NCBI GenBank assembly: GCA_965249135.1
Contig: OZ252220.1
Coordinates: forward strand, 32,001-96,000
DNA length: 64,000 nucleotides
Reading direction: 5' to 3'
Source: Alphaproteobacteria bacterium
GTDB taxonomy: Bacteria > Pseudomonadota > Alphaproteobacteria > GCA-2746255
Part shown: piece after piece, positions 4,798 through 53,866 of the stretch
How the letters are laid out: each line of letters opens with the position of its first letter
Numbering within the stretch: position 1 is the stretch's first letter
The notes under the pieces: model-generated
The model's input: the letters and a program-made list of their open reading frames with translations, nothing else
What the model was told of the DNA's origin: nothing
The model's database searches: none
Translations under genes and position numbers: made by a program

Positions 4798-4839
4798 TCC
4801 TTCCACGGCAACCACGGGTCCTTCCACGGCAACCACGGG
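4798..4839. repeat. Exact 21-bp tandem duplication inside a GC stem-loop
   Basis: TCCTTCCACGGCAACCACGGG x2, flanked by CCCCTCC / GGAGGGG inverted arms. Confidence 0.9.
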
Positions 4840-4899
4840 AGGGGAGGTTCTTGTGCAGGGATGAATCCAGTTGGGCGGATGCCCAAAAGGGAGAACGTC

Positions 4900-5482: not shown

Positions 5483-5689
5483 GAAGACCTCTGTGTCTGC
5501 CGCCGCTGGAGAAAGCCATTTTTCTTTATCCAACAAGGTCCTAGCTTACAGGAAAAGGCCGTCGCACGGTGGCGAAAAATGGGCCCGGGCCCGTCTTTAC
5601 CTTCACTCCCCCGAGGAGGGTTTGTGCTTCTGCCAATTTTCCACGCTAAGATTAACTATGTTGATGAAAGCTGCAACGAAGAAAAGCTC

Positions 5690-34656: not shown

Positions 34657-34677
34657 CTGGCTTTCGTCCTTCGCCCC

Positions 34678-35646: not shown

Positions 35647-35907
35647 AAGGAATCCACGTCTCTTTATTCGGCCTGTCTGCCTTTTTCGGGCAAGGGCGAG
35701 GAATAGATAAGGCAGCCAAGGCGTCGGTTGCAATGATAATAATTTGCTTAAAACCTAAAAAAAGCAAAGATTTAAGGACGGCAGAAATCGATCTATCTCA
35801 GGGTGGCGCTTTCGGCCGTTCATCGTGTAGCTCGGGCGTGGCAGAATGTCCCTAAGTTTTTTGTCCTTTTTCCATTCCTCCATGGGGATTTGGCATGGGG
35901 ATTTTGG

Positions 35908-36912
35908 ATGACGACCCTGCTCACCGGTGCATCCGGTTTTGTCGGCTCGGCGGTTCTTCGGGCACTGCTTGCTTCGGGTCATGAGGTGCGGGTGTTGCTG
36001 CGCGAGACGAGCGATCGACGAAATCTCGAGGGGCTCGATGTCGAGATCGTCACGGGTGATCTATGCGACCGGGCATCACTTGATCCGGCGCTTCGCGGGT
36101 GCGAGGCCCTTTTTCATGTTGCCGCCGATTACCGTATCTGGACACGAAATCCGGCAACCATCTACAAAAACAATGTGACGGGCACCCGTCAGATTCTTGA
36201 AGCAGCCGGAGAGGTGGGCGTCACACGCATCGTGCATACGAGCAGCGTTGCGGCCTTGGGATTGCCGAAGAATGGGGGCGCGGGAGATGAGGAAACGCCA
36301 GTCACCCTTGCCGACATGATCGGGCACTACAAACGCTCGAAATTTCTTGCCGAAGAGGAAGTCCGGCGCCTCGTTGCCCAAGGCCTTCCGGTTACCACCG
36401 TCAATCCTTCTGCGCCGGTCGGTCCCCGCGACATCAAGCCCACACCCACCGGCCAGATGATCATCGAGGCCGCTTCCGGGCGTATGCCGGTCTACGTCGA
36501 CACCGGCTTAAGCGTCGTTCACGTTGAAGACGTGGCGAAAGGTCATCTCCTTGCCTTTGAGAAAGGCGAGATCGGCAGACGCTACGTGCTCGGAGGCGAA
36601 AATCTAACCCTTCGCCAGATCCTAGAGAAGATCGCCGACATTACCGGCCGTTCGGGGCCAAAGTTTTGCGTGCCTCATAACTTTATTCTCCCCATCGCGG
36701 CCATTGCGGAGACGTGGACAAGGCTAAGCAGCGGTGACCAACCCTTCGTTTCGATTGACAGTGTCCGAATGTCGAAGAAGCGGATGTTCTATTCCAGCGA
36801 ACGGGCACAAAAAGAACTTGGCTACAGCCCACGACCTGCCGACGCAGCGCTTCGAGACGCCATCGAATGGTTTGCAAAGCACCAATATTGCCCGACGCCG
36901 AGCAAGTCCTAA
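35908..36912 (+). CDS. hpnA: Hopanoid-associated NAD-dependent epimerase/dehydratase
   Basis: TGASGFVG, AADYR, YKRSK, GPRDIKPTPTG. Confidence 0.92.
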   Translation: MTTLLTGASGFVGSAVLRALLASGHEVRVLLRETSDRRNLEGLDVEIVTGDLCDRASLDPALRGCEALFHVAADYRIWTRNPATIYKNNVTGTRQILEAAGEVGVTRIVHTSSVAALGLPKNGGAGDEETPVTLADMIGHYKRSKFLAEEEVRRLVAQGLPVTTVNPSAPVGPRDIKPTPTGQMIIEAASGRMPVYVDTGLSVVHVEDVAKGHLLAFEKGEIGRRYVLGGENLTLRQILEKIADITGRSGPKFCVPHNFILPIAAIAETWTRLSSGDQPFVSIDSVRMSKKRMFYSSERAQKELGYSPRPADAALRDAIEWFAKHQYCPTPSKS

Positions 36913-39518: not shown

Positions 39519-39692
39519 GGGAACGTCGTTTTCCTTGAAAAAGCGCCGCCTAGTTCTGGCTAGGCCGGCGGCAAGAAGGGGTCAAAGGCCTGCGGAAGGA
39601 TAGGGTGGTGTTTTCTCATCCGGAAATGCTTAAATATTATGGTCTCACCAGGGGCGCAAGAAGGGACGGGAGAGTCCCGAAAGGAAGGGTAC

Positions 39693-40307
39693 ATGCCACT
39701 CCGTCGGCTAAGGCAGATCCTGTACATCGCCATCGCCGCCATCTTTTTGGCGCTGCCGATACGCGCCGAGCCGTCTGGGCCGGCCGAGGTCGTCGAGAAA
39801 CTCCATGATAAGCTGATTTCGACCATGCAGCAGGCAAAGGAGCTTGGCTATGCGGGCAGGCGGGACGTGCTAACCCCCATCCTTCTAGCCACCTATGATC
39901 TCCGCCGCATGGCACGCGTGACGGTGGGGCGCCATTGGAAGGCCATGGCCGATGATCAGAAAGACTCGCTTGTCGAGTCATTTACGGCAATGACGCTCTC
40001 GAATTACGCTTTGCGTTTCGATGGTTTCTCGGGGGAGTATTTCGAAACGCTTGGTACCGTTGAAACGCCGCACGGGTATACCATCGTTCAAACACAAATC
40101 GTAACCTCCGACGAAAAGATCCGTATCGACTATCTTCTTCGAAAGTCGGACGATGGATGGGGGATTATTGATGTCTTTCTTAAGGGGACGATAAGCGAGC
40201 TTGCTGCGCGACGTTCCGAATACATGAGCGTCATCCGTGACCGTGGGGTGGACGCGTTGATTGACGCTGTGCGTGAAAAGGCCGCTAGCCTGGCCGAAGC
40301 ACGCTGA
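39693..40307 (+). CDS. hpnM: HpnM / MlaC-like periplasmic lipid-binding protein
   Basis: Signal peptide; W.IIDV..GTISELAARRSEY; divergent from hpnN. Confidence 0.85.
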   Translation: MPLRRLRQILYIAIAAIFLALPIRAEPSGPAEVVEKLHDKLISTMQQAKELGYAGRRDVLTPILLATYDLRRMARVTVGRHWKAMADDQKDSLVESFTAMTLSNYALRFDGFSGEYFETLGTVETPHGYTIVQTQIVTSDEKIRIDYLLRKSDDGWGIIDVFLKGTISELAARRSEYMSVIRDRGVDALIDAVREKAASLAEAR

Positions 40308-40336
40308 CGGCTGATTCCTTTGCCACGGTTGGTGGT

Positions 40337-40774
40337 ATGCGACGCATTTTCCTTCTTTTGCTGTTTGGACCATGCTTGCCGGTGTTCGTTTTTGCTTCGG
40401 CTGCAGCCGCAGACCTCCGTGTTCAAATAAACGAACCTCAAAACCGCAACGGTGTGATGCGGTTTGCGCTCTATGATCGCGCACCTGGATTCCCCACCCA
40501 TGAGGGCCGATTCGCCCATCTTGACATACCGGTTCCGAAAAAGGGGGAGGTCGAAGCCGTCTTTACGAACCTCCCTCCAGGAACCTATGCAGTTGCCGCC
40601 TATCATGACGAGAATGCAAACGGTGAATTCGATCAGGGGTTCTTAGGCTTTCCGTTGGAAGGCTATGGATTCAGTAACGACGCCCGTGGCTTTTTAAGCG
40701 CCCCCAGCTTTTCTTCTGCAGCGGTCATTCTGGGAAAGGACGGGGAAACAATCCGGCTTCGGCTGTCGTATTAA
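40337..40774 (+). CDS. DUF2141 family exported protein
   Basis: GTYAVAAYHDENANG..PLEGYGFSN. Confidence 0.88.
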   Translation: MRRIFLLLLFGPCLPVFVFASAAAADLRVQINEPQNRNGVMRFALYDRAPGFPTHEGRFAHLDIPVPKKGEVEAVFTNLPPGTYAVAAYHDENANGEFDQGFLGFPLEGYGFSNDARGFLSAPSFSSAAVILGKDGETIRLRLSY

Positions 40775-40785
40775 GCTGAGGAACC

Positions 40786-40820
40786 AAAAACAAAAAACGG
40801 CGCCCGGATGGAGCACCGTT
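40786..40820 (-). terminator. Intrinsic terminator for the mlaA-like gene
   Basis: Minus strand AACGGTGCTC-catcc-GGGCGCCGTT (with GU pairs) followed by a T-tract. Confidence 0.7.
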
Positions 40821-40843
40821 CGAACTAGCAAGCCAAGGTTTGG

Positions 40844-41644
40844 CTAGTCGCCGTTCTCAAAATCCATATAGGTATATCCGAAAGGACTGCCCTCGCCATC
40901 GAGGGGGAGTTTCCCATCATGGATCTTATCAAGCCGATCCTGCCGGTAGAGGCTCCGGATCGTGGCATATAGATCGATGGCAGTCCGCTGAAGGTCGTCA
41001 AACCGTTCGATGTTCTGTTCGCGCCGATCAATCGCAATGAGGCCGGCCCGAGCAAAGGTAATCCAATCCTTGTCTTCATGATTGGCCGCGAATCGGAAGG
41101 GGTCGGCGAAACTGTCGACCAAGGCGCCGACAAGATCCCGCGGGTTCGAGGGTCCCAAGAGCGGCAGCATCAAATACGGCCCTTCCGGAACGCCCCAAAC
41201 AGCCATGGTTTGCCCGAAATCCTCGACATGGGATTCCAAGCCCCAGCCCGAAGCAATGTCGAAGAGACCGACGACACCAACCGTCGAGTTAATGGTGAAT
41301 CGCCCTACCGTCGTCGCTCCGCGTTCGAATTTCCCCTGAAGGAGGTCGTTCGCGAGAATGGTCGGCGCCAAGAGGTTTCGAAGGGCATTGCGGATGCTTT
41401 TCCGGACCATCTCGGGAAAGACGAAGCGATATCCCTGGGCCAGTGGCTTGAAGGCCATCCGATCGAGGAACAGGTTGGCGTCGAGAATGCCCCTATTCAC
41501 ATATTCCATAGGATCGTTCACGTCCCCTTCCTGGGCTTGGGCCTTCGACGGAGAAAGCCCCAGCGCGCCAAGAACAACGAAAACCGCAATGATTCGGAGG
41601 AGTCGCATCCGAAGCAGTTTAGAAAGGGACCGGCCTGCACCCAT
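40844..41644 (-). CDS. mlaA: VacJ/MlaA family protein
   Basis: DPMEYVNR, RFTINSTVG, EDFGQT, GPYLMLPLLGPS; the start may be at 41608. Confidence 0.9.
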   Translation of the reverse strand: MGAGRSLSKLLRMRLLRIIAVFVVLGALGLSPSKAQAQEGDVNDPMEYVNRGILDANLFLDRMAFKPLAQGYRFVFPEMVRKSIRNALRNLLAPTILANDLLQGKFERGATTVGRFTINSTVGVVGLFDIASGWGLESHVEDFGQTMAVWGVPEGPYLMLPLLGPSNPRDLVGALVDSFADPFRFAANHEDKDWITFARAGLIAIDRREQNIERFDDLQRTAIDLYATIRSLYRQDRLDKIHDGKLPLDGEGSPFGYTYMDFENGD

Positions 41645-41919
41645 CTACCCACTCCTTGACTATGGTCAATTTACTAGACTTTTCAGAAAGATACCATCGT
41701 TTTAACCATGTGGCAAACGCCCAGTTCCCACGAGGGGCGGGGAGCATCTAAACGGAATTTTCTTACCATTTCCTTGCCGGCCCCCAGATCCTTTGGATGG
41801 CTTCGTTCTGTCGAAAATCGGCCAGAGGCTTGCTCGCACTTTGCACGACCGCCTAACATAGCGTCATGGGGCAGGGGCCTTTGGTGTAGGCGAAAGAGGT
41901 GAGCTCTAGAGGACCGAAA

Positions 41920-42690
41920 ATGTCTAATCCCATTCTTTCCGTAACCGACAAGGACGCCTTTCGGCGGGATGGATTCGTCATCGTCCGGCAGCTTTTCGAT
42001 GTGGATGAGATGCGCCAGGTCGAAGTATGGACGAACGAAGTTGTCGCCATGCCGGAGGTTCCTGGAAAGCAGATGGTCTATTACGAGGATAGCCTCAAGG
42101 AGCCTGGCAAGCGTGTGCTCCAGCGGATCGAGAATTTCGCACCCTATCATGAGGGGCTTTGGGAGCTTTTCAATGGGTCGAAGATGCGAGGCCCCGTCTC
42201 GGAACTCTTTGGCGAACCGGCAGTTCTGTTCAAGGAGAAGATCAACTTCAAATTGCCGGGCGGGGGCGGGTTCAAGCTGCATCAGGATCAGCAGGCCGGC
42301 TGGGGGGTCTATGCCGATTTGTTCATTACGATGCTTGTCAGCATCGATGATGCAATGATAGAGAACGGCTGTCTCGAACTTGCGGCCGGCCATCATGCCA
42401 AAGGTCTCATAGGAAAGGTGTGGGAACCCTTAAACGAGGAGGATGCGAGCCGAGAAAGGTTGGATCTCGTTTCCTTCGCGAGCCAAGCTGGGGATGCGGC
42501 GATATTTAATTCCTTCGTGCCGCACCAATCGAAGCCGAATCGCACGAACGAACCGCGGCGGGTGCTATATGTGACCTACAACAAGGCATCGGCCGGCGAC
42601 CACCGGGTCCAGTACTACGCCGACAAACGGCAAAACTATCCGCCGGATATCGAACGGGAAGCGGGCAAAGACTACGTGTTTCGCGTTTGA
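41920..42690 (+). CDS. Fe(II)/2-oxoglutarate dioxygenase (PhyH family), PhnY-like aminoethylphosphonate hydroxylase
   Basis: HQD..H triad; LFKEKINFK.PGG.GF..HQD and TYN..DKR..PP..ER..GKDY recall 2-AEP dioxygenase PhnY. Confidence 0.75.
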   Translation: MSNPILSVTDKDAFRRDGFVIVRQLFDVDEMRQVEVWTNEVVAMPEVPGKQMVYYEDSLKEPGKRVLQRIENFAPYHEGLWELFNGSKMRGPVSELFGEPAVLFKEKINFKLPGGGGFKLHQDQQAGWGVYADLFITMLVSIDDAMIENGCLELAAGHHAKGLIGKVWEPLNEEDASRERLDLVSFASQAGDAAIFNSFVPHQSKPNRTNEPRRVLYVTYNKASAGDHRVQYYADKRQNYPPDIEREAGKDYVFRV

Positions 42691-42716
42691 GTCAACTATC
42701 GAAAAGGTGAGCCCAC

Positions 42717-42977
42717 GTGAATAACGTGTCGAGCTGGGATCAACGCATGGGCCGATTGCTTGCTCGGGGACTGGCCCGTACTCCGATAACTCCAAATCAC
42801 GTCTCGCTCTTTTCACTCTTCATCGCAGTGACGGGCGCGGCCCTCTTTGCGGCCGGCAAGGAAACGTGGGCGTATTGGGGAGCCAGCTTTTTCGTTCTCG
42901 GACGCGTGGTCGACCACGTTGATGGCGCGCTTGCCCGGCTCACCGGAAAAACGCTTGGTACCGTGAAGGGGACCTGA
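42717..42977 (+). pseudogene. Truncated CDP-alcohol phosphatidyltransferase
   Basis: TPN..S and DHVDGALAR, but the ORF ends before the G-x3-D-x3-D half of the motif. Confidence 0.75.
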
Positions 42978-42980
42978 AGT

Positions 42981-43580
42981 CTAGTCACGCGTCCCGTGTA
43001 AGCGAAGGCGCAAATAAGCAAAGACAGTAAAAGCCAGTGCGCCGATTGCGGCGGCAACAAGGAGGGGCTCTCCCCAACCAAACCACATGGCGAACGGCAC
43101 GGCAAGAATTGCATCGTCGGGGTCGAAGCCGCCGGTTCCTTCGAAAGCGGGCTTGCTCTTGCCCTCGCGGATTTCCATCTGGACGACGAGGCCAAGGACC
43201 GCCGCCACCGACAGACCAGCCAATAAGCCCAACGGCATTGACCAGAGGCCAAGCGCACTGGCGCGCAGCCCGATGCCAATTCCGATGAACAGGGCGGCAT
43301 TTACGACCGCGTCGCAGACAAGGTCGAAACGATGCCCCCATTCGGTCGTAACGCCGGTGATGCGCGCAAGCTCGCCGTCCGCGCGGTCCAACGCCACGGA
43401 AAGAAGAAAAAAGATTCCGCCAAGAAACGTCCACAGAGGCTCCCCAATCGCGTAAGCCGTCGCAGCCCCCAGACCCGCGAGCAGACGAAGCGTCGTCAAT
43501 TGGTTCGGCGTAACCGACGTGCGGGCAAGGACTCGGGTCGGTGGCCGGACGAGGCGGTGGATCCAAGTATTGTGGCTCAT
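42981..43580 (-). CDS. CDP-alcohol phosphatidyltransferase family protein
   Basis: TPNQLT, DRADGELAR..GHRFDLVCD. Confidence 0.92.
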   Translation of the reverse strand: MSHNTWIHRLVRPPTRVLARTSVTPNQLTTLRLLAGLGAATAYAIGEPLWTFLGGIFFLLSVALDRADGELARITGVTTEWGHRFDLVCDAVVNAALFIGIGIGLRASALGLWSMPLGLLAGLSVAAVLGLVVQMEIREGKSKPAFEGTGGFDPDDAILAVPFAMWFGWGEPLLVAAAIGALAFTVFAYLRLRLHGTRD

Positions 43581-43730
43581 GAGTGGCGTTGCCTTAGCTT
43601 GCCTGGGAAGACGGGGCGTTTCTTATAGTCAGGCGGGATCGTAGTCGCACCGGTCGGCAAGACAAAGATTTTTCCCTGCGGCTTTCATTGACAGGGCTCG
43701 GCCGGCGCGGTTTCCTGATCCGATAAGAGA

Positions 43731-44855
43731 GTGCAGAAAATGTCAGACACGCCGGAAGAACCTCTGCTGCTTACGCCAGGGCCGATCACGACCTCCCGAG
43801 CCACGAAGGAGAAGATGCTTCGTGACTGGGGCTCGCGGGATCGTGATTTCATCGCGCTTACGCGGCACGTTCTGGATCGGCTTCTTCGTCTCGCTTGCGG
43901 CGAAAAAAGCTATGCCTGCGTGCCAATCCAGGGAAGTGGCACGTTCGGCCTCGAAGCCATGCTTGGCACGCTCGTGCCACGGGAAGGGAAAGTGCTCGTT
44001 CTCGTGAACGGCGCCTATGGTGCGCGGATCGCCGAGATTGCGAACCGTATGGCCCGCAACCACCTCGCGATTTCACTTGCCGAGACGCGCCCACTCGACC
44101 CAGCGGCACTCGATAAAGCGCTGGTCGCAGATCCAACGATTACCCATGTGGCGGCCGTTCATTGCGAGACCGGATCCGGGCTTCTGAATCCCATCGAAAA
44201 GATTGCGGCGGTTACGGCAAAGCACGGACGTCGGCTGCTTCTTGATGCAATTAGCACGTTTGGCGCCTTGCCCCTCGACGTGGCTTCCCTTCCTTGCGAT
44301 GCGGTCACCGTCTCAGCCAACAAATGCTTGGAAGGCGTACCCGGGGTCACGTTTGCAATTGCGCGTGAGGACTCCCTCACCACTTCCCAAGGGAACGCCT
44401 CCTCCTTGAGCCTTGATCTTTTCGAGCAATGGCGGCTGCTCGAAGAGACCGGCCAGTGGCGATTTACACCGCCTACCCAGGTGCTCGCAGCTCTAGCCCA
44501 TGCGCTTGAGGAACACGCGGCCGAAGGCAGGATCAAGGGCCGTGGAGACCGCTACCGTAACAACTGCCAGGTTCTCATCGAAGGCATGCGGGAACTTGGG
44601 TTTCAAACTTTCCTTCCAGATGAATTTCAAGCGCCGATCATTGTCGCTTTTCATTCCCCGTCGGACCCAAATTTCACCTTTCCGGCGTTTTACGATTTCC
44701 TGCGTGATAAAGGCTATGCAATCTATCCGGGGAAAGTGACGGCGGCAGACACTTTCCGGATCGGTTGCATCGGAAAGGTCTATGAAAAAGACATCCTGGG
44801 CGTGCTGGCGGCGGTCCGTGAGGCGATGACGAAATTTGAGTTCACGCCCACCTAG
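43731..44855 (+). CDS. phnW: 2-aminoethylphosphonate aminotransferase (PhnW/AepZ)
   Basis: LLTPGP, DWGSRD, HCET, SANKCLEGVPG, QWRFTPPT. Confidence 0.93.
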   Translation: MQKMSDTPEEPLLLTPGPITTSRATKEKMLRDWGSRDRDFIALTRHVLDRLLRLACGEKSYACVPIQGSGTFGLEAMLGTLVPREGKVLVLVNGAYGARIAEIANRMARNHLAISLAETRPLDPAALDKALVADPTITHVAAVHCETGSGLLNPIEKIAAVTAKHGRRLLLDAISTFGALPLDVASLPCDAVTVSANKCLEGVPGVTFAIAREDSLTTSQGNASSLSLDLFEQWRLLEETGQWRFTPPTQVLAALAHALEEHAAEGRIKGRGDRYRNNCQVLIEGMRELGFQTFLPDEFQAPIIVAFHSPSDPNFTFPAFYDFLRDKGYAIYPGKVTAADTFRIGCIGKVYEKDILGVLAAVREAMTKFEFTPT

Positions 44856-44878
44856 CACGTCCGATCGGAAGGTGGGGT

Positions 44879-46018
44879 TTAATTCTTCCCAACAAAGGTG
44901 CGGAAACGGCGCGCGACGTCCGCCGGCTTTACCGTCGGTCGCCCAAGTTTGCTGAGCGAGCCTGGGCGAATGCGAAGATGCAGGAAGGTTGGGCCGGCAA
45001 GCGATGCCGCCTCCTGAAAGGCCGCCTGAAAGCCCTTAAGCGTATCCGCGGCAAAGGCGTGCGGGTAGCCGCAGGCCAAGGCAATGGCTGCGAAATCGAC
45101 GCTTTCCGAAACCGTCGCTTGGCCCCCGGTCGAATCATGGGTGCCGTTGTCGAGCAGCACATGGAGCAGGTTTCTTGGCGCATAGGCTCCGATCGTTGCA
45201 AGCGTTCCCATTTTCATCAAAGCCGCCCCATCTCCGTCGAGCACGATGACCGGGCGCTTAACATTCAATGCCACGCCAAGGGCAAGGCCGCTTGCACAGC
45301 CCATCGAACCGACCTGATAGAGATGCTGTTCGCGGTCAGCGAGGGTGAAAAGTTCGCGCCCGCATTTCCCCGTCGTGGCGATCACGGCGGCATCCTCGGT
45401 AACGAGCTCTAAAAAGGCGGTCAGCACTTCCGAGCGGATTGGTCGTCTGCCACCTTCGCCAAGGTCGTGCCGGGTGCCGGGCAGAGGCAGCGTGCGCCGA
45501 GGCTGGTCCAGACCATCGTTACGGACCGAATCCTTTTCCATGATGAAGGCAAAAGACCGCTCGGATGCCGTCATTTCTCGATCCGCTTCCTCCAGCGCCT
45601 TCGGGATGGCGGCAGCCTCCTTCGGAAACGGTCGGTGCGGGATTTCCATGTCGTCCAGCAATCGGTCCGTGATCCGTCCCATCAACTCGTGCTGCGGCTC
45701 ATCGGCGTGTCCCGGCTGTCCCCGCCAGGTCGTGATGAGGAGGATCGGAATGCGAAAGGGATAGGCGAGCGAGGTAAGGGGATTGACCGTGTTCCCAAGT
45801 CCCGAATTCTGACACATGGTGACGCCGCGCTTGCCTGCGAGCCATGCACCCGCGGCGATGGCGACGGCTTCTCCCTCGCTAGCCGCCCCCACGTAATGAA
45901 GCTTTGGATGCCCGATCGCACGGTTGATGAAGGGGGTCAGAAACGAGCAGGGCACTCCAGAATAGAAATCGAACCCGCGCTCGCGCGCCGGCTCCAAGAA
46001 TGCATCTGCTTCGATCAT
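44879..46018 (-). CDS. aepY: Phosphonopyruvate decarboxylase (AepY/Ppd)
   Basis: GVPCS, QNSGLGN, DEPQH, GDGAALM..N TPP motif, DSTGGQ. Confidence 0.95.
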
Positions 46019-47670
46019 AGAAAGTTGCGTGCTTTCGCGAGATCGAAAGGATCGTCGATATCGAGCCAGTGACCAGTAATGTACTGCACTTGGATCTTAT
46101 GACCTGACTCGACCAGCCGGTTAAAGAGATCCGGCATGTCCGCCGTCTGCAGGCTGCCATCCGTGGACATCACTTCAATCTCATCCCGGACAATCTTTGC
46201 ACCATTCGGGCTGAGTAGGACAAGTCCCACCCATTCACCATGAATTTCATCGGTTGGGATTTCCGTTCCGACACGAAGCAATCGCGCCGTGTCGCCCTCA
46301 AGGTAATCGGGGTGGAAGGGGTTGTCGCATTGAACGAAATCGCGTGTACGCTTCTGCGTTTGACGTTCCCGCCAAAGTGCGTCGGCGGCGACAGTAATAT
46401 CGGCATCCGACCCCTGCAGCTGTTCAAGAATGTAGCTTCGGTAAAGGATATCGCCGTAGGTAATGAGACAAGGCCCATCCTTTAACTGATCGATTGCGCA
46501 AGCAAGCGAGGCGACCTCGCCGGTCTCGGCAAAGTTGGCGTTCGTACGCATATCGATCGCCGGTATGTCGATGGCTTCCTTCCGATAGCCGCCGACGACA
46601 GTAACGTTGCGAATGCCACTCTCGCGTATCGTTGCAATCATCGTACGCAGCAGAGGTTTGCCGCGCACATCGATCATGCATTTCGGGCGGTCTTCGGTAA
46701 GCGGGCCAAGAGAATCGCCCCGCGTTGCCGCAAGGATGATCGCACGTGCCTTTTCACCTCTTTGCGGCAGATAACGCCGTTCCGCCTCTGCCAGCTCGGT
46801 TTGTCCTGCAAGTTCGAAGACGTCCTTCACCGACGCAACGGTATCTTCAACGTTGACTAGACTTTGACTCTCATAGATCCGTTTGCATACGTCCCGCATT
46901 CCGGCAATGGCGGCACGCAGATTGTGATTTGCCCAAATGACCGTTGATATCCCGGCATTCTCAAACTGCCCCGTCGGCGTCGCATAGTACATCGTCGGCA
47001 CAATGATAACCGAACATGTGTTTCCCCATTCCTTCATGAAGGCGAAGATTTCATCCGCGGTTTTCTCTTTGGAGTGTACGAGAAGTGCATCGGCGCCGGC
47101 TTGATGATAAGCCTCGGCGCGCCGCAGCGCTTCATCCAATCCCCAACCTGCGATGAAAGCCTCGATCCGCGCGATGACGCAGAAGTCAGAGTTGAGTTGA
47201 CTGTCTTTGCCTGCCTTGATCTTGCCACAGAACTCATCAATGTCTGCCAGGGGCTGGCCTTCCCCGAGGAAGGAATTCGTTTTCGGAAACTGCTTGTCTT
47301 CGATGCAGACACCGGCAACGTTTCGCTGGCAAAGCTTCGTCACCAGCCGGCGAACGTTGTTGAAATTCCCATAGCCCGTATCCCCATCCACCAGGATCGG
47401 GATCGATGTCGCATCCGACATGAATTCGAGGATTTCGAGGACCTGGGTCCAGGAGGCCTCGTTGTTGTCGCGTACGCCAAGGGCCGCTGAGATGGAGAGA
47501 CCGGACGCCCAAATGCCACGAAAACCGGCTTCCTCGACAATCTTCGCAGAAAGCCCGTTATGGGCTTCCATCAGAAAGGAGAGTTTCGGCGAAAGCAACT
47601 CCCCACGAAGGAGCGCTGCCTTCGTAGGCTCTGAGGATGCTTCCGGCGCGCGTTTCGGAAGAACGGTCAT
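46015..47670 (-). CDS. pepM: Phosphoenolpyruvate mutase fused to a C-terminal nucleotidyltransferase (AepX/PepM)
   Basis: Diagnostic [10 protein letters not shown] (EDK-X5-NS); C-terminal [15 protein letters not shown]-transferase domain. Confidence 0.96.
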
Positions 47671-47834
47671 CGGCCCAGAATTTTCATGGATGGGACCCGT
47701 AACATTTACGTCATATCTCTTGGATTTTCAAATGCCTGTGTTGACTTGCCACGAAGCTCAATGACGGTCGAGCTTGCACGCCTGCCCTACCGGTGCGATA
47801 TCCGGTCGGAAAACGTAGGACGAGGGTATCCCCT

Positions 47835-48572
47835 ATGAAAGTCGTCATGCTTGCCGCCGGGGTAGGCTCAAGGCTCGGCGAAGAGGGCAGGCTCCCAAAG
47901 GTGCTCCTGGAATTCGGGGGTCAAACGCTGCTCGAGCGTCATATCAAGATCTTAAGCGCGGCGGGCCTCGAATCCCTTATCCTTGGGGTAGGCTTCGAGG
48001 CGGAGCGAATCGCGGCAGCGGTCGAAAAGCTGCATGCCGAGGACTTCGTCCGTCTCATCGGGAATCCGGACTACCGAAAGGGAAGCATCACGACCCTTTG
48101 GGCGCTTAAGGATGCGATCCCTGCCAACGAGCCGATCCTGCTGATGGACGCGGACGTCCTTTACGACCCGCGGCTGATCGGGCGGCTACTGGCAACCTCG
48201 CATGCCAACTGCTTTCTTCTCGACCGCGATGTCGAGGAGGGAGAGGAACCCGTCAAACTTGGCGTACGAGGTGCAGAGCTTGTCGATTTCAATCGGCGCA
48301 TCACATTGCCCCATGACTTCTATGGCGAATCCGTCGGTTTTTTCCGTTTCTCGCCTGAGATTACGGAGAAGGTGATGGCGCATGCGGAACGCCGTTTGCA
48401 GGCAGGAGAGACGGAGCTTTGGTATGAAGAAGCGATTCGCGATGTGCTTCTTTCCGAACCTATCGGCACCTTTGGCTTTGAAGACGTGACCGGCCTTCCC
48501 TGGATCGAGATTGATTTTCCGGAAGATATTCGACGCGCGGACGAAGAGATTTTGCCAAGGCTATTGGTCTGA
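47835..48572 (+). CDS. Phosphocholine/phosphonate cytidylyltransferase (LicC/PntC-like)
   Basis: LAAGVGSRL..PK, MDAD, WIEIDFPED. Confidence 0.88.
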   Translation: MKVVMLAAGVGSRLGEEGRLPKVLLEFGGQTLLERHIKILSAAGLESLILGVGFEAERIAAAVEKLHAEDFVRLIGNPDYRKGSITTLWALKDAIPANEPILLMDADVLYDPRLIGRLLATSHANCFLLDRDVEEGEEPVKLGVRGAELVDFNRRITLPHDFYGESVGFFRFSPEITEKVMAHAERRLQAGETELWYEEAIRDVLLSEPIGTFGFEDVTGLPWIEIDFPEDIRRADEEILPRLLV

Positions 48573-49340
48573 ATTTCCGTTCCGGAAGAGATAGTTTTCT
48601 GGCCCCTGATAGCCATCAATACACATAGACGTGCCGGACTGAAAATTCATTTGATAGGTTTCGTACCCAACAGCGTGCAGAAAATCGAAGACATCTTTCA
48701 CGTGATGGCCCATGCGTGCCAGGTAGTCTTCGACGACCTCTAGATAAAGCGTGGGACGGAAACGACGGATGGTCTCGGCGCCCCCTTGCAGAACCAGGAA
48801 TTCGGCACCCTCGACATCGCATTTCACGAAATCGAGACGAGAAAACCCATTTTCAGTTGCGTAGCTGTCAAGGGTCGCCGTTTGTACGCGCTCCGTGACG
48901 TAATCACGCGCTTGCTCTGCTCCAAAATGTCCCAGCCCGATACCCAGATGGCCGGACTCCTTTACCGGCAAATAAAAATCGATTTCTCCGGTCTTATCGG
49001 AAAGGGCGAATTCGTTGATGCGCACGTTGTTAAGCTTACCCACGACCTCTTTCAGGATCGAGAGGTTATAGGGGGAAGGCTCGAAACAGTGCACGGAGAC
49101 ATTCCCGTGATGGAGCCGGGCAAACTCCTTCGCATAGCCCCCTATATGCGCACCAATGTCGAGGATAACCCCCTGTTCGGGGATGAGCGTGCCCAGGCAT
49201 TTGACGACGTGACGGTCGCGCGCCTTGTATTTTGCCTTGAGCTTATGGAGGAAGCGCTCAAAGCGTTGCGCAGGCGCATTGTAGACCTCAGTTGGGTCGA
49301 GTTTCTGACCTTTCCGTTCCAAAATGGCGCGTCCATCCAA
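48561..49340 (-). CDS. FkbM-family methyltransferase
   Basis: LDIGAHIG, FEP, KCDVEGAE; start uncertain because the ORF-track N-terminus reads through the tRNA fragment. Confidence 0.85.
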   Translation of the reverse strand: MDGRAILERKGQKLDPTEVYNAPAQRFERFLHKLKAKYKARDRHVVKCLGTLIPEQGVILDIGAHIGGYAKEFARLHHGNVSVHCFEPSPYNLSILKEVVGKLNNVRINEFALSDKTGEIDFYLPVKESGHLGIGLGHFGAEQARDYVTERVQTATLDSYATENGFSRLDFVKCDVEGAEFLVLQGGAETIRRFRPTLYLEVVEDYLARMGHHVKDVFDFLHAVGYETYQMNFQSGTSMCIDGYQGPENYLFRNGNSDQ

Positions 49341-49356
49341 TCCAGGTGGCACGAAG

Positions 49357-49401
49357 TGGTGGGCGCTGCTGGGTTTGAACCAGCGACCCCTGCCGTGTGA
49401 A
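49357..49401 (-). repeat. Duplicated 3' part of tRNA-Val (att site)
   Basis: 45 bp identical to 53792-53836. Confidence 0.96.
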
Positions 49402-49657
49402 AAAAGCCTAACCCGCAAAAAATAGCATCGTTCAAGGTTTTTTGAGAAACGTCTTTCGTCGTTTAGACATGTCTAAAACAAGAACACCGATCAAAAATGG
49501 TTCAAATGAACCACCGCACGGTGCTTTTTTCAGCATCCCAATGCTCTCGACTTTGACCAATAGACTCTAATTACTTGTGCGGTTTGTACGTGAACTGATG
49601 TCTATTTAGCGAGGCGCGAGATTCGGCCGTTCCGGAAAGCCAAACGCTTACCGCCGT

Positions 49658-50785
49658 TTATCGACCGGAGTCTTCAGGCGGTGACGGCCGCACATTCGAC
49701 GTTCCCCATTCGTAACCGAGGGTCAGAAGATAGGCCGTATCGGTACCGGTCTTGCCTCGGACCGGAGAATTGTCCCAATCGAAATTCGCCTGCAGGGTGG
49801 CAAGAAAACCGTGGACGAGACGGAAGCGAAGGCCGGTACGGGTCCGGATGATGAGGTCGCTTGTATTCTCCAATCCCAAAAGCCCCTCCTGGGAGTGGAA
49901 GGCCTCGGCGCGATTGCGAAACAAGGCTTCCTGGTAGTTGATCGACCAGCGTGCAGCCGGATAATCTTTATCCTTCTGTGTACTAAAACCTTCCGTCACA
50001 TAACTGAATCCGAATTCGGCGGAAAGATCGCGTTCCTCGGTGTCGAAAAACTGATAGCCGGCGCCCCCGCCTGTCGCCGTGCGACGATTGAGGTCCTCAA
50101 ACTTATCGCGCTCGAAGCTCGCATTAAGGAAAGCAAACCACTGCTTCGTAAGGAAGTAATCGTACTTGGCAGAGACGAACGTATTATCATCGGTTTCTCT
50201 GCCGTCGTTCTTTTCCAGGTTGTATTCGAAGACAAGCTTCGCCCGGTGACGTTGCTTGCGCGCATTCACTTCCCCATCCACGTGATAGTTGTCTTCGTCA
50301 TTATTGCCTCTCTCGGCATCGAAGCCGAGATTGAGGCGGCCCCGCAATTCGAGTTTCCCTGCTTCCGAAACCGCAGGCTGAGCCGCCGCCTTGGGGGGCG
50401 CGGCCCGGGTCGCGATCTGCCGGGTAGCGGTCTGAATATCCGTGAAGCGAAATTCCCAGGCGCGCGTGAAGTCGGGGGTGACGAGCTGAAGCATGCTCCC
50501 ATAGCGGGGCGCGATCGTGCCCACGAGCCGCGTGCCGCTCGGAAACGTCACGTGCAAGGGCCAGTCCGCCTGGATGGCGGCAACCTCCTGGCGGCGAATG
50601 CGAATCCTGCCCGCGTAAGTCGTTTGCAGGGCGACTTCCTTCGGGTCGATCCCTTCGATCGTCCCTCTAAGGCGGTCGCCGGATTTCAGGAAAACCTCAT
50701 CTGCGGCGGCGGCGCCGGCGAAAACGAGGAAAAGAGCCAGGAGAACCAGACAGATCGGCCCTCGGAGATTGCCTCCCCTCAGCAC
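49658..50785 (-). CDS. DUF481-like outer-membrane beta-barrel protein
   Basis: Signal peptide, ADEVFLKSGDRLRG N-domain, amphipathic beta strands (GGGAGYQFF, LTLGYEW). Confidence 0.8.
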   Translation of the reverse strand: MLRGGNLRGPICLVLLALFLVFAGAAAADEVFLKSGDRLRGTIEGIDPKEVALQTTYAGRIRIRRQEVAAIQADWPLHVTFPSGTRLVGTIAPRYGSMLQLVTPDFTRAWEFRFTDIQTATRQIATRAAPPKAAAQPAVSEAGKLELRGRLNLGFDAERGNNDEDNYHVDGEVNARKQRHRAKLVFEYNLEKNDGRETDDNTFVSAKYDYFLTKQWFAFLNASFERDKFEDLNRRTATGGGAGYQFFDTEERDLSAEFGFSYVTEGFSTQKDKDYPAARWSINYQEALFRNRAEAFHSQEGLLGLENTSDLIIRTRTGLRFRLVHGFLATLQANFDWDNSPVRGKTGTDTAYLLTLGYEWGTSNVRPSPPEDSGR

Positions 50786-51294
50786 GCGATCCGCCCTAGA
50801 GGTCGCACACCCCGCAAAGCAAGCGATTCCGCAACGGGTTTTCGTCTCACTGCCCCTCTCGCCCTTGCCATCCGCGCAATTGGCAAGCCCAACGTCAGCG
50901 GGCGCCAGTCCATGGCGTAAAGCATATCTCTGTTAGGCAACACCGTTCCGACGAATTCCACGAACGAAAAAGCATGCCCGGACAGGTGACGAACACCGCA
51001 CGAGACCCTATACTGTGGCGCGACGGACTTGGTGACAAGCCCTTCATTCAGCCACTGCCCGTTTTTTCCAGGCAGCTACGACTAGACGATCGGCGGACGG
51101 AACGAACCAAACCGGTCCCGTTCCGTTAGGTGCGGTTGCACTTCTAGGTGCGATCGCACTTCGCTCGCCCCGTGTGTCTCAGCCGGTTTGAGTTCTAGTG
51201 TGCTTGCCAAGAGAGGAAGGCGAATCTGTGGTGCCTGCTCGAAGAGCCTGAGCCGCGGAAGTTTTTTTGTCGGGATTGAATTGCTTATGGAACA

Positions 51295-52134
51295 GTGGAG
51301 AAGAATAGGTCGATGATCGCTCATGATCGCGCAACCACGGCGCTCCTGCTCGCTGCGGGTACAGGAAGTCGTTTGCGCCCATTGACCAAGAACGCCCCGA
51401 AGTGTCTCACTGAAGTCGGTGGCATCCCAATCCTCGAACGGCTGGTCAACAACCTGCGTGAACACGGAATCAAGAGGCTGGTGGTGGTTATTGGACACCT
51501 GGGCGACCATATCCGCGATTTCCTGAACGATAAGGCGGGCGATATGCAGGTCGACTGCATCCTCAGCCCCAAGTACCAGACAACCAACAACATCTATTCC
51601 CTCTGGCTGGCCCGGGAACGAATCCGGGAACCGTTCCTGCTGGTGGAAAGCGACCTGATCTTCGATGCCTTGATGTTGGAGAACATGCTCCATCCGGACA
51701 AGATCGCGATTTCCCGCATCCGGCCCTGGATGAACGGGACAACGGTGACAGTTGGCCCCGGGAGGCGGGTCAGGGCCTTCAATGTCGGCGGCGGTGCGGA
51801 GGATGACGTACCGCGTTACAAGACGGTGAATGTCTACAGCCTTTCCGCGCCGACCTGGAACAAGACCGTGACAAGACTGAACCGCTACATCTCGAATGGT
51901 AGGGTCGGTGAGTATTACGAAGCCGTTTTCGCTGAAATGGTTGCCGACGGCACGCTTTCCTTCGAAGTGGCCTTCTTCGATCCAGACCGCTGGTATGAAA
52001 TCGACACCATGGCGGACCTCAACGAAGCGGAAAGGAGGTTCGGTGGGATGTCCCACCCCTACGTCGGGCCAGATGTCTGCCGTCTTCAAACCGCCGGGAG
52101 AGGCTCGTTGACATCGGTTGCCGCGAATGACTGA
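51295..52134 (+). CDS. Phosphocholine cytidylyltransferase-like NTP transferase
   Basis: LLAAGTGSRLRPLT..PKCL, TNNIYSL, ESD, WYEIDT. Confidence 0.9.
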   Translation: MEKNRSMIAHDRATTALLLAAGTGSRLRPLTKNAPKCLTEVGGIPILERLVNNLREHGIKRLVVVIGHLGDHIRDFLNDKAGDMQVDCILSPKYQTTNNIYSLWLARERIREPFLLVESDLIFDALMLENMLHPDKIAISRIRPWMNGTTVTVGPGRRVRAFNVGGGAEDDVPRYKTVNVYSLSAPTWNKTVTRLNRYISNGRVGEYYEAVFAEMVADGTLSFEVAFFDPDRWYEIDTMADLNEAERRFGGMSHPYVGPDVCRLQTAGRGSLTSVAAND

Positions 52135-52939
52135 GATCAACTACGCAACGGCCAACCGGTATTGGGAAGGGGCCACGCCTTCGATCCTCGGGCCGTACAT
52201 GATGGACGGGTTCGGCTTTCCCGTGAGCGCGGGAGGGTTCCGTTTCCGGGCGGAATCGCGGATCGTCCGGCGACTGGTCCACAGCGTGAAACGGGACGGC
52301 ACGGTCCTCGATCTCGGAAGCGGCGTCGGGTTCTGGGCCGGGGACTTCGCTGCTCGCTTCTCCCAGGTAGTCGCGGTCGAGGGTAGCGGGACGCTGTACC
52401 AGGCTTTGGAGAGAAGGTGCGCTCCACACCCTAACGTCCGTCCCGTCCACGACAACGTCATGTCGTTCGAGCCTGACGGTCGCTATGACCTGATCTTTCT
52501 CGGCGGCCTGCTCATGTACCTCAACGAAAAGGACGTGATTGCCCTGCTGCGGAGACTGGTTCCGTTCCTCGAACCGGGCGGAATGATCCTGTGCCGCGAG
52601 TCCACCGTCCGCGGCGAGACCGTAGCACGTCGGGGCGACTACCAGGTCGTCTATCGTTCCGTGCTGGACTACGGACGTATCTTCGGGCAATGCGGATTGA
52701 GCGTCCGGCACATCGAGAGAAACGAGCCCTATGTTCTCATGCAGATGGGGTGCGAACTGGTCAAGATATGGAAGGAAACGGTGTCTGAGCGATTTCAGGT
52801 CCTTCGGGGCGTTGGCCATTTGACGTATTTCATGTTGCGCCTGGGAAACCCCTGGATCACGCGCGTTCCCAAGGTGCTGGGTATTCCGTTTCCGAAGCTG
52901 GAAAACCACTTCTTCGTGCTCGAAGCGGAGCGTCCTTAA
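52127..52939 (+). CDS. Class I SAM-dependent methyltransferase (phospho-base N-methyltransferase-like)
   Basis: VLDLGSGVG motif I; YDLIF..LLMYL and GGMILCRES. Confidence 0.82.
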   Translation: MTEINYATANRYWEGATPSILGPYMMDGFGFPVSAGGFRFRAESRIVRRLVHSVKRDGTVLDLGSGVGFWAGDFAARFSQVVAVEGSGTLYQALERRCAPHPNVRPVHDNVMSFEPDGRYDLIFLGGLLMYLNEKDVIALLRRLVPFLEPGGMILCRESTVRGETVARRGDYQVVYRSVLDYGRIFGQCGLSVRHIERNEPYVLMQMGCELVKIWKETVSERFQVLRGVGHLTYFMLRLGNPWITRVPKVLGIPFPKLENHFFVLEAERP

Positions 52940-53008
52940 TATTTATGGGGCGCAGTCGTTTCCATCGGCTCAGGCCCGCTCCAACTCACGCTCATCTCGG
53001 GGGCAACG

Positions 53009-53695
53009 ATGGAAAATCCACCGGGAAATTTCGTTTACCGGAATTTGGCCAACGTGACGTCGATTCTCGGCGCGCTGCCTCTCGTAATTCTCTTCCTGGA
53101 TGACGGCTACCGATACCTGATCCCGCTGATCCTGTTTAACAACGTCATGGACGATCTAGACGGCATTCTGGCTGCTAAACTGAACATCAGAAGTCGGTTC
53201 GGCGGCGACCTCGACAACATATGCGACGCGGTCGCTCACGTCATTTTAGCCATGGCAGTCGGCGCGCATTTCGGCGGCATCCTCATCGCCGCGAGTGTGA
53301 TCGCAGCCGGCTCGATCATTCTTCGCGTTACCTCCCGGCTCGATCCCGATACAGCCACGAGGACGGGCTCTCCGACGAACGAACTCATGCGCCACATGCT
53401 GTTCGTCCTCCTGCTGGCCGGGCAGTTCGACTTCGAGCCCGCATATATCCTGATCCCGGTATTCCTTCTGCATTCGGTGTCGATGCTCATGCCGTTAAGG
53501 ATGCCCACCCTCATCCGGAGCCGAGCCAAGTCGGCGGCCACGGTCGGTATGGTGAATGCGGCGCTGGTGGTGGCTTGGCTCATGCCTCCCGCCACGCCGG
53601 TCGTCGCGGCCGCCTTCATCGGCACCTACCTGTATGCCTTCGGCGTGGGGGCCGTTCGTTGGTCGAAGGAACGGGGCGGCGAGACACGTCCATAA
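53009..53695 (+). CDS. CDP-alcohol phosphatidyltransferase family protein (Pcs/PssA-like)
   Basis: ANVTS, DDLDGILAAK..GGDLDNICD, multiple TM segments. Confidence 0.88.
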   Translation: MENPPGNFVYRNLANVTSILGALPLVILFLDDGYRYLIPLILFNNVMDDLDGILAAKLNIRSRFGGDLDNICDAVAHVILAMAVGAHFGGILIAASVIAAGSIILRVTSRLDPDTATRTGSPTNELMRHMLFVLLLAGQFDFEPAYILIPVFLLHSVSMLMPLRMPTLIRSRAKSAATVGMVNAALVVAWLMPPATPVVAAAFIGTYLYAFGVGAVRWSKERGGETRP

Positions 53696-53791
53696 CAAAC
53701 CCCGGGGGCGTCCGCGCTTGCCGCCTCCGGCCTCTGGTTCAAATGAACCAACCAATCGCTGTTTCTTTTCAACTTAACTCTTTGAAAACAT

Positions 53792-53866
53792 TGGTGGGCG
53801 CTGCTGGGTTTGAACCAGCGACCCCTGCCGTGTGAAGGCAGTGCTCTCCCGCTGAGCTAAGCGCCC
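53792..53866 (-). tRNA. tRNA-Val (CAC)
   Basis: GGGCGCTTAGCTCAGCGGGAGAGCACTGCCTTCACACGGCAGGGGTCGCTGGTTCAAACCCAGCAGCGCCCACCA; cloverleaf with CCA end. Confidence 0.97.

Follow-up and report, generated by a model that had tools for sequence, protein, structure and literature searches.

A three-gene operon on a tRNA-Val island as a candidate choline-independent route to N-methylated head-group lipids in bacteria

What does a bacterium make with an operon in which a methyltransferase resembling the phosphoethanolamine N-methyltransferases (PMTs, also known as PEAMTs) of eukaryotes lies between a cytidylyltransferase and a cytidine diphosphate (CDP)-alcohol phosphotransferase? The question is raised by positions 51295-53695 of a 64,000-nucleotide (nt) stretch of contig OZ252220.1 (assembly GCA_965249135.1), from an Alphaproteobacteria bacterium; this whole stretch is referred to below as the window. 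The original prediction, made from the letters alone, described the three genes as a mobile head-group cassette that had landed next to a cluster producing 2-aminoethylphosphonate (AEP), and named N-methyl-AEP lipids, phosphonocholine lipids and phosphatidylcholine (PC) as possible products. Of the three, the evidence favors a PC-type lipid, made by a route unusual for bacteria. We lean, with modest confidence, toward the view that the operon encodes a choline-independent, Kennedy-type route in which phosphoethanolamine becomes an N-methylated, CDP-activated head group that is then delivered to a membrane lipid.

Three open reading frames (ORFs), all on the + strand, fill the interval 51295-53695 according to the ORF listing and the Pfam matches (E-values in parentheses):

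51295-52134, + strand: NT1, a LicC-like phosphobase cytidylyltransferase of 279 amino acids (aa) (NTP_transf_3 6e-11, NTP_transferase 1e-10)
52127-52939, + strand: MT, a PMT/PEAMT MT1-like, S-adenosylmethionine (SAM)-dependent N-methyltransferase of 270 aa (Methyltransf_25 8e-13)
53009-53695, + strand: a divergent CDP-alcohol phosphotransferase of 228 aa (CDP-OH_P_transf, PF01066, 6e-7, above cutoff)

The methyltransferase ORF was listed from a TTG at 52118 (273 aa), with an ATG at 52127 as the alternative (270 aa). The ATG is most likely the true start, because the relatives of the protein are 270 aa long and begin with M-[TP]-E. It overlaps the end of the NT1 gene by 8 nt, and this overlap of start and stop suggests translational coupling.

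The methyltransferase belongs to the class I SAM-dependent fold by its Pfam matches (Methyltransf_25/11/12/23), and its motif I, VLDLGSGVG, is invariant in 16 aligned sequences. The motifs on which the comparison with PEAMT had been founded, YDLIF..LLMYL..DV..L and GG...RES, are both found in the translation, as YDLIFLGGLLMYLNEKDV and GGMILCRES. In a phmmer search against all Protein Data Bank (PDB) chains, the best matches were Arabidopsis PMT2 (5wp5, 1.3e-23) and PMT1 (5wp4, 4.7e-22), followed by a nematode PMT1 (6wlf, 4e-10), with the next family at 1e-6. A profile of 16 bacterial relatives returned the same order, with domain E-values of 2e-17 for PMT2, 1e-15 for PMT1, 1e-14 for 6wlf and about 1e-9 (7e-10) for Haemonchus PMT1 (4krg); the next family, KsgA, reached 5e-10, and Plasmodium PfPMT (3uj6) was far lower, at 2.4e-4. 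The best match always falls in the N-terminal MT1 domain of the PMTs. No Pmt family appeared among the Pfam, NCBIfam or PDB matches of the methyltransferase, and none of the trio proteins scored above the cutoff of a Pmt or Pcs NCBIfam model. Judged by sequence similarity, the methyltransferase is nearer to characterized PMTs than to any other solved methyltransferase, and the label PEAMT-like therefore stands.

A search of 1.84 billion cluster representatives gave 1327 proteins at E<=1e-3, 28 of them at E<=1e-30, and four of the matches are di-domain PMT-type proteins of 473-567 aa. In a MAFFT alignment, YW...MM(L)D, VLxLGxGxG, LxMYL, P.G...RES and YR are common to the bacterial family and these four proteins. 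The same kind of alignment, in which the four unnamed di-domain proteins stand in for the 4krg sequence itself, gives the correspondence with the residues of Haemonchus PMT1 (HcPMT1), whose phosphobase site is so hemmed in by Trp14, Met26, Met27 and Trp123 that the first methylation alone is favored (PMC10269165). Among the bacterial proteins, W16 never varies and M28/M29 hardly do, and their spacing matches that of Trp14, Met26 and Met27. At the Trp123 position, the bacterial family has an invariant Gly-Gly (G130) in place of the eukaryotic Asn-Trp, from which we infer a pocket wider than that of the eukaryotic MT1 domain, one that could allow more than one methylation. The bacterial enzyme is a single domain of 270 aa, not a di-domain (MT1+MT2) protein as in plants and nematodes, and alignment with the di-domain PMTs reveals a helical insertion of about 60 residues near its C-terminus. 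Single-domain PMTs, such as PfPMT, do exist. As weak evidence on fused or longer forms, no relative was found at E<=1e-8 among proteins of 479-2000 aa.

An AlphaFold2 (AF2) model of the methyltransferase (predicted local distance difference test score, pLDDT, 78) has the Rossmann-type strand order, and its top Foldseek matches are all class I methyltransferases. The structural comparison proposed earlier thus agreed with a class I N-methyltransferase-like fold and did not single out PMTs, so that the link to PMTs rests on the sequence searches. On these grounds, the enzyme is predicted to be a PMT-type methyltransferase with phosphoethanolamine as its substrate.

The first protein, NT1, carries the signature GTGSRLRPLTKNAPK, which fits the consensus GXG(T/S)RX4-8PK of LicC/PntC-type transferases (PMC6697681). 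Its top solved relative, matched over its full length (residues 14-246), is the cytidine triphosphate (CTP):phosphocholine cytidylyltransferase LicC of S. pneumoniae (1jyk, 4e-21), with the AEP-specific Tde-PntC (6pd1, 4.5e-15, over the N-terminal 120 residues) in second place. NT2 (47793-48572), a transferase encoded in the neighboring AEP cluster, ranks the two the opposite way (PntC 1.8e-14, LicC 2.5e-6).

The third protein, of 228 aa, has the motif D48xxD51G52xxA55-A56-x8-G65xxxD69xxxD73, in which D48, D51, G52, A55, G65, D69 and D73 are invariant in an alignment of 20 sequences and present in all 46 motif strings. The four aspartates and the glycines have the canonical spacing. Where the AR dipeptide normally has its Arg, the window protein has Ala, and the residue varies across the family (A, I, V, N, G, K, T). 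The AF2 model (pLDDT 83) has eight helices, and the nearest folds are the lipid synthases phosphatidylserine synthase (PSS), PgsA and phosphatidylinositol phosphate synthase (PIPS). A sequence search of the PDB with the transferase returned PSS only (E 0.04), and a search of the ESM Atlas returned only clusters labelled as generic CDP-OH or 'PssA family'.

In the proposed route, the PMT(MT1)-like methyltransferase would use SAM to N-methylate phosphoethanolamine one to three times, the LicC-like NT1 would use CTP to turn the methylated phospho-base into its CDP derivative, and the divergent phosphotransferase would move the phospho-base to diacylglycerol, yielding PC or mono- or dimethyl-phosphatidylethanolamine (MMPE or DMPE). 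The gene identities and their order fit the Kennedy-like logic put forward in the original prediction (methylate a base, activate it with CTP, transfer it to a lipid); what is predicted comprises all the substrates, how many methyl groups are added, whether methylation comes before activation, and the acceptor.

The trio is widely conserved as a unit. Of the 1846 candidates in a family search with the methyltransferase, 968 had E<=1e-3, and the best 120 of the 968 are 66-99% identical and mostly 270 aa long. Nearly all relatives are unnamed or generically named; one cluster, from a Tevnia tubeworm endosymbiont, bears the name 'phosphoethanolamine N-methyltransferase' (NCBI/UniRef). A scan of one genome per species with the methyltransferase yielded 80 loci, of which 55 (L001-L055, E<=8e-63) are clearly orthologous and the others match only weakly and in part; the counts that follow refer to these 55 loci. 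By their labels, the carriers are Alpha- and Gammaproteobacteria, SAR324, Nitrospirota, Nitrospinota, Planctomycetota (including Scalindua), Verrucomicrobiota, Acidobacteriota, one Bacillota metagenome-assembled genome (MAG) and one archaeal MAG. They are largely marine or deep-sea MAGs, with Nitrospina, Nitrospirales, sulfur-oxidizing Gammaproteobacteria and the tubeworm symbiont among the labels.

The three genes occur in the same order in 40 of the 55 loci, across at least seven bacterial phyla and the archaeal MAG, and the neighbors are always different; the designation as a three-gene head-group cassette is borne out by this recurrence as well as by the ORFs and the Pfam matches. Upstream of the methyltransferase, 47 loci have an NT1-type gene and two (L002 and L003) have in its place a gene 49-50% identical to NT2 of the window; the remaining six have no upstream transferase, three for want of contig room and three (L001, L006 and L012) with room to spare. 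Downstream, a cassette-type CDP-alcohol transferase is found in 47 loci. The eight without one include four lacking contig room, the decayed second copy L046, and L021, L029 and L042, where a different, PssA/Pcs-like transferase takes its place. When all ORFs within 9 kb of the methyltransferase were clustered for the 51 loci whose methyltransferase passed E<=1e-30, no gene family besides the trio was common to more than five loci, and the trio can therefore be regarded as a self-contained module in unrelated contexts. The flanks of the other alphaproteobacterial loci all differ from those of the window.

In a methyltransferase tree of 55 rows, from which three short copies were left out, phyla mostly cluster (nine label changes against a minimum of five). 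The exceptions are Nitrospirota, which appear in two places, a verrucomicrobial copy inside Gammaproteobacteria, and Scalindua grouped with Marithrix. The copy in the window branches beside L023, within an alphaproteobacterial clade supported at 97%. Within this clade the cytidylyltransferase varies, being absent upstream in L001, L006 and L012 and NT2-like in L002 and L003. Two further copies are of separate interest. L044 (7873-10124), from a MAG labelled 'uncultured archaeon', has all three genes, 41-46% identical to those of the window, and, if the binning is right, would be a bacterial-type head-group module in an archaeon. L046 (9304-10636) comes from the same Acidobacteriota MAG as the intact cassette L037 and is a second copy in decay; its NT1 is split in two, its methyltransferase ends at residue 211 and its transferase is missing.

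Whether the cassette is mobile, as had been claimed, can be read from its surroundings in the window, which comprise the following features:

49357-49401, - strand: left att-like border, a 45-nt copy of the tRNA-Val 3' half including CCA (perfect direct repeat)
49498-49513, no strand: 16-nt near-palindrome TGGTTCAAATGAACCA, inside the left border and downstream of the DUF481 gene
49658-50785, - strand: DUF481 gene of 375 aa (Pfam DUF481 5e-51), inside the island and outside the conserved cassette; its product is presumably an outer-membrane protein
50949-51294, + strand: conserved non-coding leader of the operon (part of the 82% DNA match to L023)
53735-53750, no strand: second copy of the 16-nt near-palindrome, inside the right border, with a T-rich run after it
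53792-53836, - strand: right att-like repeat, the 3' 45 nt of tRNA-Val (perfect repeat)
53792-53866, - strand: intact tRNA-Val, anticodon CAC (ARAGORN; Rfam tRNA, 67 bits), its 3' end facing the cassette

The 45-nt repeat occurs just twice in the window, and 100 shuffles produced no match at all. The copies bracket a 4.4-kb island (about 49402-53791) that holds the DUF481 gene and the trio. As perfect tRNA-derived repeats flank the island and an intact tRNA lies at one end, the sequence supports integration into the 3' half of the tRNA, that is, a tRNA-Val-integrated island, and in this respect the claim of mobility is upheld. No integrase was found among ORFs of at least 80 aa in 49402-53791, the composition of the island is not distinctive (GC content 0.579 against 0.581 for the window), and the methyltransferase had no match in plasmid or phage collections at E<=1e-10. 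For these reasons, the island is likely a remnant or a unit mobilized in trans.

The closest locus, L023, shares DNA with the window, at 82% identity, over the trio and its leader only; the match spans 50949-53706, that is, it starts about 350 nt before NT1 and excludes the DUF481 gene, for which tblastn found no relative in any of the 55 loci at E<=1e-8. In L023 a phage-type integrase (Arm-DNA-binding and SAM-like domains) lies about 0.7 kb upstream of the first trio gene; it had no tblastn match in the window. No convincing att-like repeats were found in L023, whose contig ends inside the integrase. A tRNA occurs within about 1.2 kb of the cassette in four of the 55 loci (L014, L032, L033 and L039), which is suggestive only. 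The integrase side of L023 corresponds to its positions 1-826; downstream, positions 4553-7853 hold glyoxalase, TauD-family dioxygenase and GMC-oxidoreductase genes. The GMC-oxidoreductase family includes choline dehydrogenase, and a TauD gene is also found near the L012 cassette.

The leader of the operon may serve as a promoter region or encode a regulatory RNA. Its window copy (50949-51294) is about 80% identical to positions 1209-1536 of L023 and has a 17-nt insertion; the leader also contains a hairpin-like ACGGAACG...CGTTCCGT. An Rfam scan of the island and leader returned the tRNA only and no family for the leader. A consensus scan placed one promoter-like site in the leader (50986-51014), with promoter and terminator sites in the scan not above chance (two promoter-like sites against 1.3 expected). 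The near-palindrome at 53735-53750 is likely the operon terminator, though the consensus terminator scan did not list it; the copy at 49498-49513 may be a terminator or else an arm site for recombination.

Immediately outside the left repeat begins the AEP cluster, at 41899-49418. PhnW, Ppd and a PepM-nucleotidyltransferase fusion are all above their NCBIfam cutoffs, which confirms that the cassette lies beside an AEP-producing cluster. Its other relevant genes are:

41899-42690: PhnY*-like PhyH dioxygenase (NCBIfam methylphosphonate hydroxylase, 2e-49, below cutoff)
42981-43580: canonical CDP-alcohol transferase with the motif DRADGELAR-x8-G-x3-D-x3-D
47793-48572: NT2, a stand-alone PntC-like transferase beside the PepM-fused transferase
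48561-49418: FkbM-type methyltransferase, called from TTG 49418

The content of this cluster suggests a hydroxylated and/or methylated AEP lipid, and the cluster appears self-sufficient, having its own activation (the PepM-fused transferase and NT2) and transfer enzymes. Because it lies outside the island repeat and carries its own transferases, the adjacency of the trio and the AEP genes is best explained by a shared tRNA-Val integration hot spot and not by a shared pathway. If the FkbM ORF is called from TTG 49418, the partial tRNA copy forms its codons 6-20; the gene then either starts further in than called or received a new 5' end through the insertion. To the left of the AEP cluster, 33532-41644 holds genes for HpnH (33532-34656), IspH/LytB (34678-35733), an epimerase (35803-36912) and HpnN (36909-39518), along with MlaC, MlaA and DUF2141 genes, and the whole stretch of about 20 kb concerns envelope lipids.

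Some of the other loci offer a candidate source of phosphoethanolamine. In five of the 55 (L021, L029, L030, L042 and L043), two genes are inserted beside the methyltransferase, one for a pyridoxal phosphate (PLP) enzyme and one for a CDP-alcohol transferase. In NCBIfam searches of three of the five, the best match of the PLP protein (Aminotran_1_2) was the CobD threonine-phosphate decarboxylase (1e-54 to 3e-50, below cutoff), with HisC second, and the top solved relative of the L029 protein is 6oux (1e-36), described as a 'threonine phosphate decarboxylase-like enzyme'. The SMUL_1544 enzyme is said to decarboxylate phosphoserine to phosphoethanolamine. The same description as for 6oux is applied to SMUL_1544 in PMC7755780, and a title cited in PMC6461909 states that its gene 'governs norcobamide biosynthesis'. 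From its sequence, the CobD-like enzyme is a plausible candidate source of phosphoethanolamine, which argues for the phosphate series; in these genomes it would make phosphoethanolamine from phosphoserine. The second inserted gene encodes a PssA/Pcs-like CDP-alcohol transferase with the motif DGx2ARx12Gx3Dx3D; the cassette-type transferase is missing from four of the five loci, which looks like a replacement.

A different insertion is seen in Nitrospinota (L020, 11164-14260; L022; L055), where three genes separate the CDP-alcohol transferase gene from that of the methyltransferase. Clustering identifies them as encoding a myo-inositol-1-phosphate synthase, an IPCT-DIPPS-type fusion and a DUF4202 protein; in the L020 copies, the only ones given family scans, the IPCT-DIPPS fusion reached 1e-86, below cutoff. 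Together the inserts may encode another CDP-alcohol pathway, for a head group or a solute, embedded in the cassette.

Several results weigh against the proposed route. Foldseek ranks NTMT1, pavine N-methyltransferase, farnesyl diphosphate (FPP) methyltransferases and PMTs together, all at E about 1e-13 to 1e-12. Eukaryotic MT1-type domains carry out the first methylation only, according to the HcPMT1 study (PMC10269165), which makes PC less certain than a methylated phosphatidylethanolamine (PE)-type lipid. The Arg of the AR dipeptide is kept in only one of 46 members of the transferase family and replaced in 45. The closest fold to this transferase is the PSS of M. jannaschii, a CDP-diacylglycerol user (template modelling score, TM, 0.66/0.73), and the TM score to the eukaryotic CHPT1/CEPT1 structures (8ero, 8gyw, 9uet) is only 0.23-0.25. 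No CobD-like gene was found in the window, and hence no candidate source of phosphoethanolamine is seen there. In L002 and L003, from Hyphomicrobiales, the methyltransferase is paired with an NT2-like, that is, PntC-like, transferase. Finally, PntC contacts the amine of AEP through Glu104 and Glu196, at which LicC has the smaller Asp105 and Asp192, making room for the trimethylammonium group (Rice et al., PMC6697681); at the position of Glu104 in Tde-PntC, NT1 carries a conserved E118-S-D120, whose PntC-like Glu hints at a small amine substrate, with the second amine-contact position ambiguous (A213/E214). NT2, PntC-like overall, has Asp-Ala-Asp at the Glu104 position and so shows that this position does not track overall similarity, and we give it little weight accordingly. 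A single-residue Glu/Asp test of NT1 specificity was set aside as unreliable, given the PntC-like Glu of NT1 and the LicC-like Asp of NT2.

The complete AEP pathway physically adjoining the island invites a phosphonate version of the scheme, in which the methyltransferase would act on the neighboring AEP, NT1 would form CMP-(methyl)AEP, and the transferase would make an N-methyl-AEP or 'phosphonocholine' lipid. AEP and phosphoethanolamine are isosteres. The LicC family includes AEP-specific PntCs (PMC6697681), N-trimethyl-AEP is a known natural intermediate elsewhere (PMC9296572), and both the PntC-like Glu of NT1 and the pairing in L002 and L003, whose transferase is 49-50% identical to the PntC-like NT2, point the same way. 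Yet PepM, Ppd and PhnW are absent from the examined flanks of all 55 related loci, so that the co-occurrence with pepM suggested as a check did not materialize and the phosphonate products are disfavored; five of the loci have the CobD-like decarboxylase instead, the AEP cluster is self-sufficient and lies outside the att repeat, and NT1 is overall nearer to LicC than to PntC. We regard this version as unlikely. The same low probability attaches to the possibility that, in this genome, the methyltransferase and NT1 would also accept AEP and thereby give N-methyl-AEP or 'phosphonocholine' lipids without described biosynthetic genes. A weak PepM-domain match in L033 was rejected, its EDQVQSKRCG in place of EDKxxxxxNS making it methylisocitrate-lyase-like.

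The product might also be something other than a lipid, the CDP-activated methylated base being passed to a soluble alcohol, to yield a phosphodiester that acts as a compatible solute (the type of product made by DIPP synthase), or to a glycan or an envelope polymer. The archaeal solute enzyme IPCT-DIPPS has an IPCT half that is matched by both NT1 (3e-19) and NT2 (2e-17), three loci (L020, L022 and L055) have the inositol-1-phosphate synthase, IPCT-DIPPS fusion and DUF4202 genes inside the cassette, the carriers are largely marine or deep-sea by label, and phosphocholine decoration of glycans via CDP-choline is well known (PMC10434233). Such transfer to glycans is, however, normally the work of LicD-type enzymes and not of CDP-alcohol phosphotransferases (PMC10434233, PMC6697681); the cassette transferase is a small polytopic membrane protein with PSS, PgsA and PIPS as its nearest folds, the three Nitrospinota loci are one clade and count as one event, and no glycosyltransferase or polymer-export gene is common to the loci, all of which leaves a non-lipid product improbable. 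Hardly more promising is a different wiring of the same genes, with a PssA/Pcs-type transferase using CDP-diacylglycerol and a free amino alcohol, or with NT1 acting on unmethylated phosphoethanolamine and methylation following later, on CDP-ethanolamine or the lipid: PSS is the closest fold and the sole PDB sequence match of the transferase, four loci exchange it for the PssA/Pcs-like type, and the Glu of NT1 is PntC-like, but the conserved cytidylyltransferase would have nothing to do in a CDP-diacylglycerol-dependent scheme, and the methyltransferase looks like the soluble enzymes that methylate phospho-bases rather than like bacterial phospholipid N-methyltransferases. That three unrelated housekeeping genes are neighbors by chance and the 45-nt repeat is no integration scar would agree with the missing integrase, the unremarkable GC content and the lack of plasmid or phage matches; it is very hard to reconcile with a gene order that recurs in 40 of 55 loci across phyla amid unrelated flanks, with overlapping start and stop codons, with a perfect repeat of exactly the tRNA 3' half that no shuffle reproduced, and with L023, which shares DNA over the trio and leader only and has a phage-type integrase about 0.7 kb upstream.

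The Kennedy-type route from phosphoethanolamine would, if real, be new to bacteria in two respects. Four bacterial routes to PC were listed in 2021 in the available text of PMC8590670: lipid methylation by Pmt, the Pcs reaction, the choline-dependent CDP-choline route of Treponema, and acylation of glycerophosphocholine (GPC). Phospho-base methylation is described, in the abstracts of PMC2824672 and PMC4805780, as confined to plants, nematodes, protozoa and frogs, and the part of a 2026 paper on bacterial Pmts that we consulted mentions PMT only as a Plasmodium example. A search of the full-text literature, which largely leaves out subscription journals, found no description of such a bacterial cassette or pathway. 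The operon would thus provide the first prokaryotic PMT, for a chemistry thought to be restricted to some eukaryotes, and a fifth, choline-independent and horizontally spreading bacterial route to PC or methylated head-group lipids; we put the chance that the cassette is such a fifth route to methylated head-group lipids, on its own and without AEP cross-talk, at about even. Given carriers labelled Nitrospina, Nitrospirales, Scalindua, SAR324, Planctomycetota and Acidobacteriota, among others, the operon could explain PC- or methyl-PE-type lipids in dark-ocean and low-oxygen waters and serve as their genetic mark. PC- and methyl-PE-type lipids have been reported from these carrier groups.

The cassette can be compared with several known systems. 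The island resembles other tRNA-targeted genomic islands in its direct repeat of the tRNA 3' half and the intact tRNA at one end, and differs from the usual ones in measuring only 4.4 kb, in having no integrase or mobility gene inside and in its lack of compositional contrast. With plant PEAMT/PMT, nematode PMT1+PMT2, and PfPMT, each together with the Kennedy pathway, the cassette shares the three-step logic of methyltransferase, cytidylyltransferase and CDP-alcohol phosphotransferase, and its methyltransferase has the YW..MM, LxMYL, RES and YR motifs in common with the eukaryotic PMTs. Unlike these, it has a single 270-aa methyltransferase domain with the C-terminal helical insertion of about 60 residues and Gly-Gly for Asn-Trp, a cytidylyltransferase of the LicC type, a transferase that is PSS-like and not CPT/CEPT-like, and all three genes in one operon on a mobile island. 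Eukaryotic cytidylyltransferases have a different, CCT-type fold.

The Treponema denticola route, LicCA plus CPT, is the only bacterial Kennedy-type PC route listed in the available text of PMC8590670. Like the cassette, it combines a LicC-family cytidylyltransferase with a CDP-alcohol phosphotransferase, PC being proposed there to arise from CDP-choline and diacylglycerol. T. denticola needs external choline, whereas the cassette lacks the LicA kinase and has a PMT-like methyltransferase instead; Pfam found no kinase domain in the three cassette proteins, and no kinase family is common to the loci. With no kinase and the methyltransferase in its place, the cassette would be choline-independent. 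Having no kinase, no di-domain methyltransferase, no CPT-type transferase and an atypical CDP-alcohol motif, the cassette is a member of neither the eukaryotic PMT-Kennedy branch nor the T. denticola LicCA-CPT route.

NT1 itself is of the LicC/PntC family that operates in Lic-1 and Pnt systems, and the AEP cluster of the window is a typical Pnt cluster with a PepM-nucleotidyltransferase fusion. The cassette differs from these systems in lacking a LicD-type transferase, LicA, LicB and any association with PepM across the loci, and in having a methyltransferase, which the available descriptions of Lic-1 and Pnt systems do not count among their parts. Its end product, PC, MMPE or DMPE, is likely the same as that of PmtA and Pcs. 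Pmt adds its methyl groups to the completed lipid, and Pcs joins free choline to CDP-diacylglycerol (PMC8590670), whereas in the cassette methylation is predicted to take place on the soluble phospho-base.

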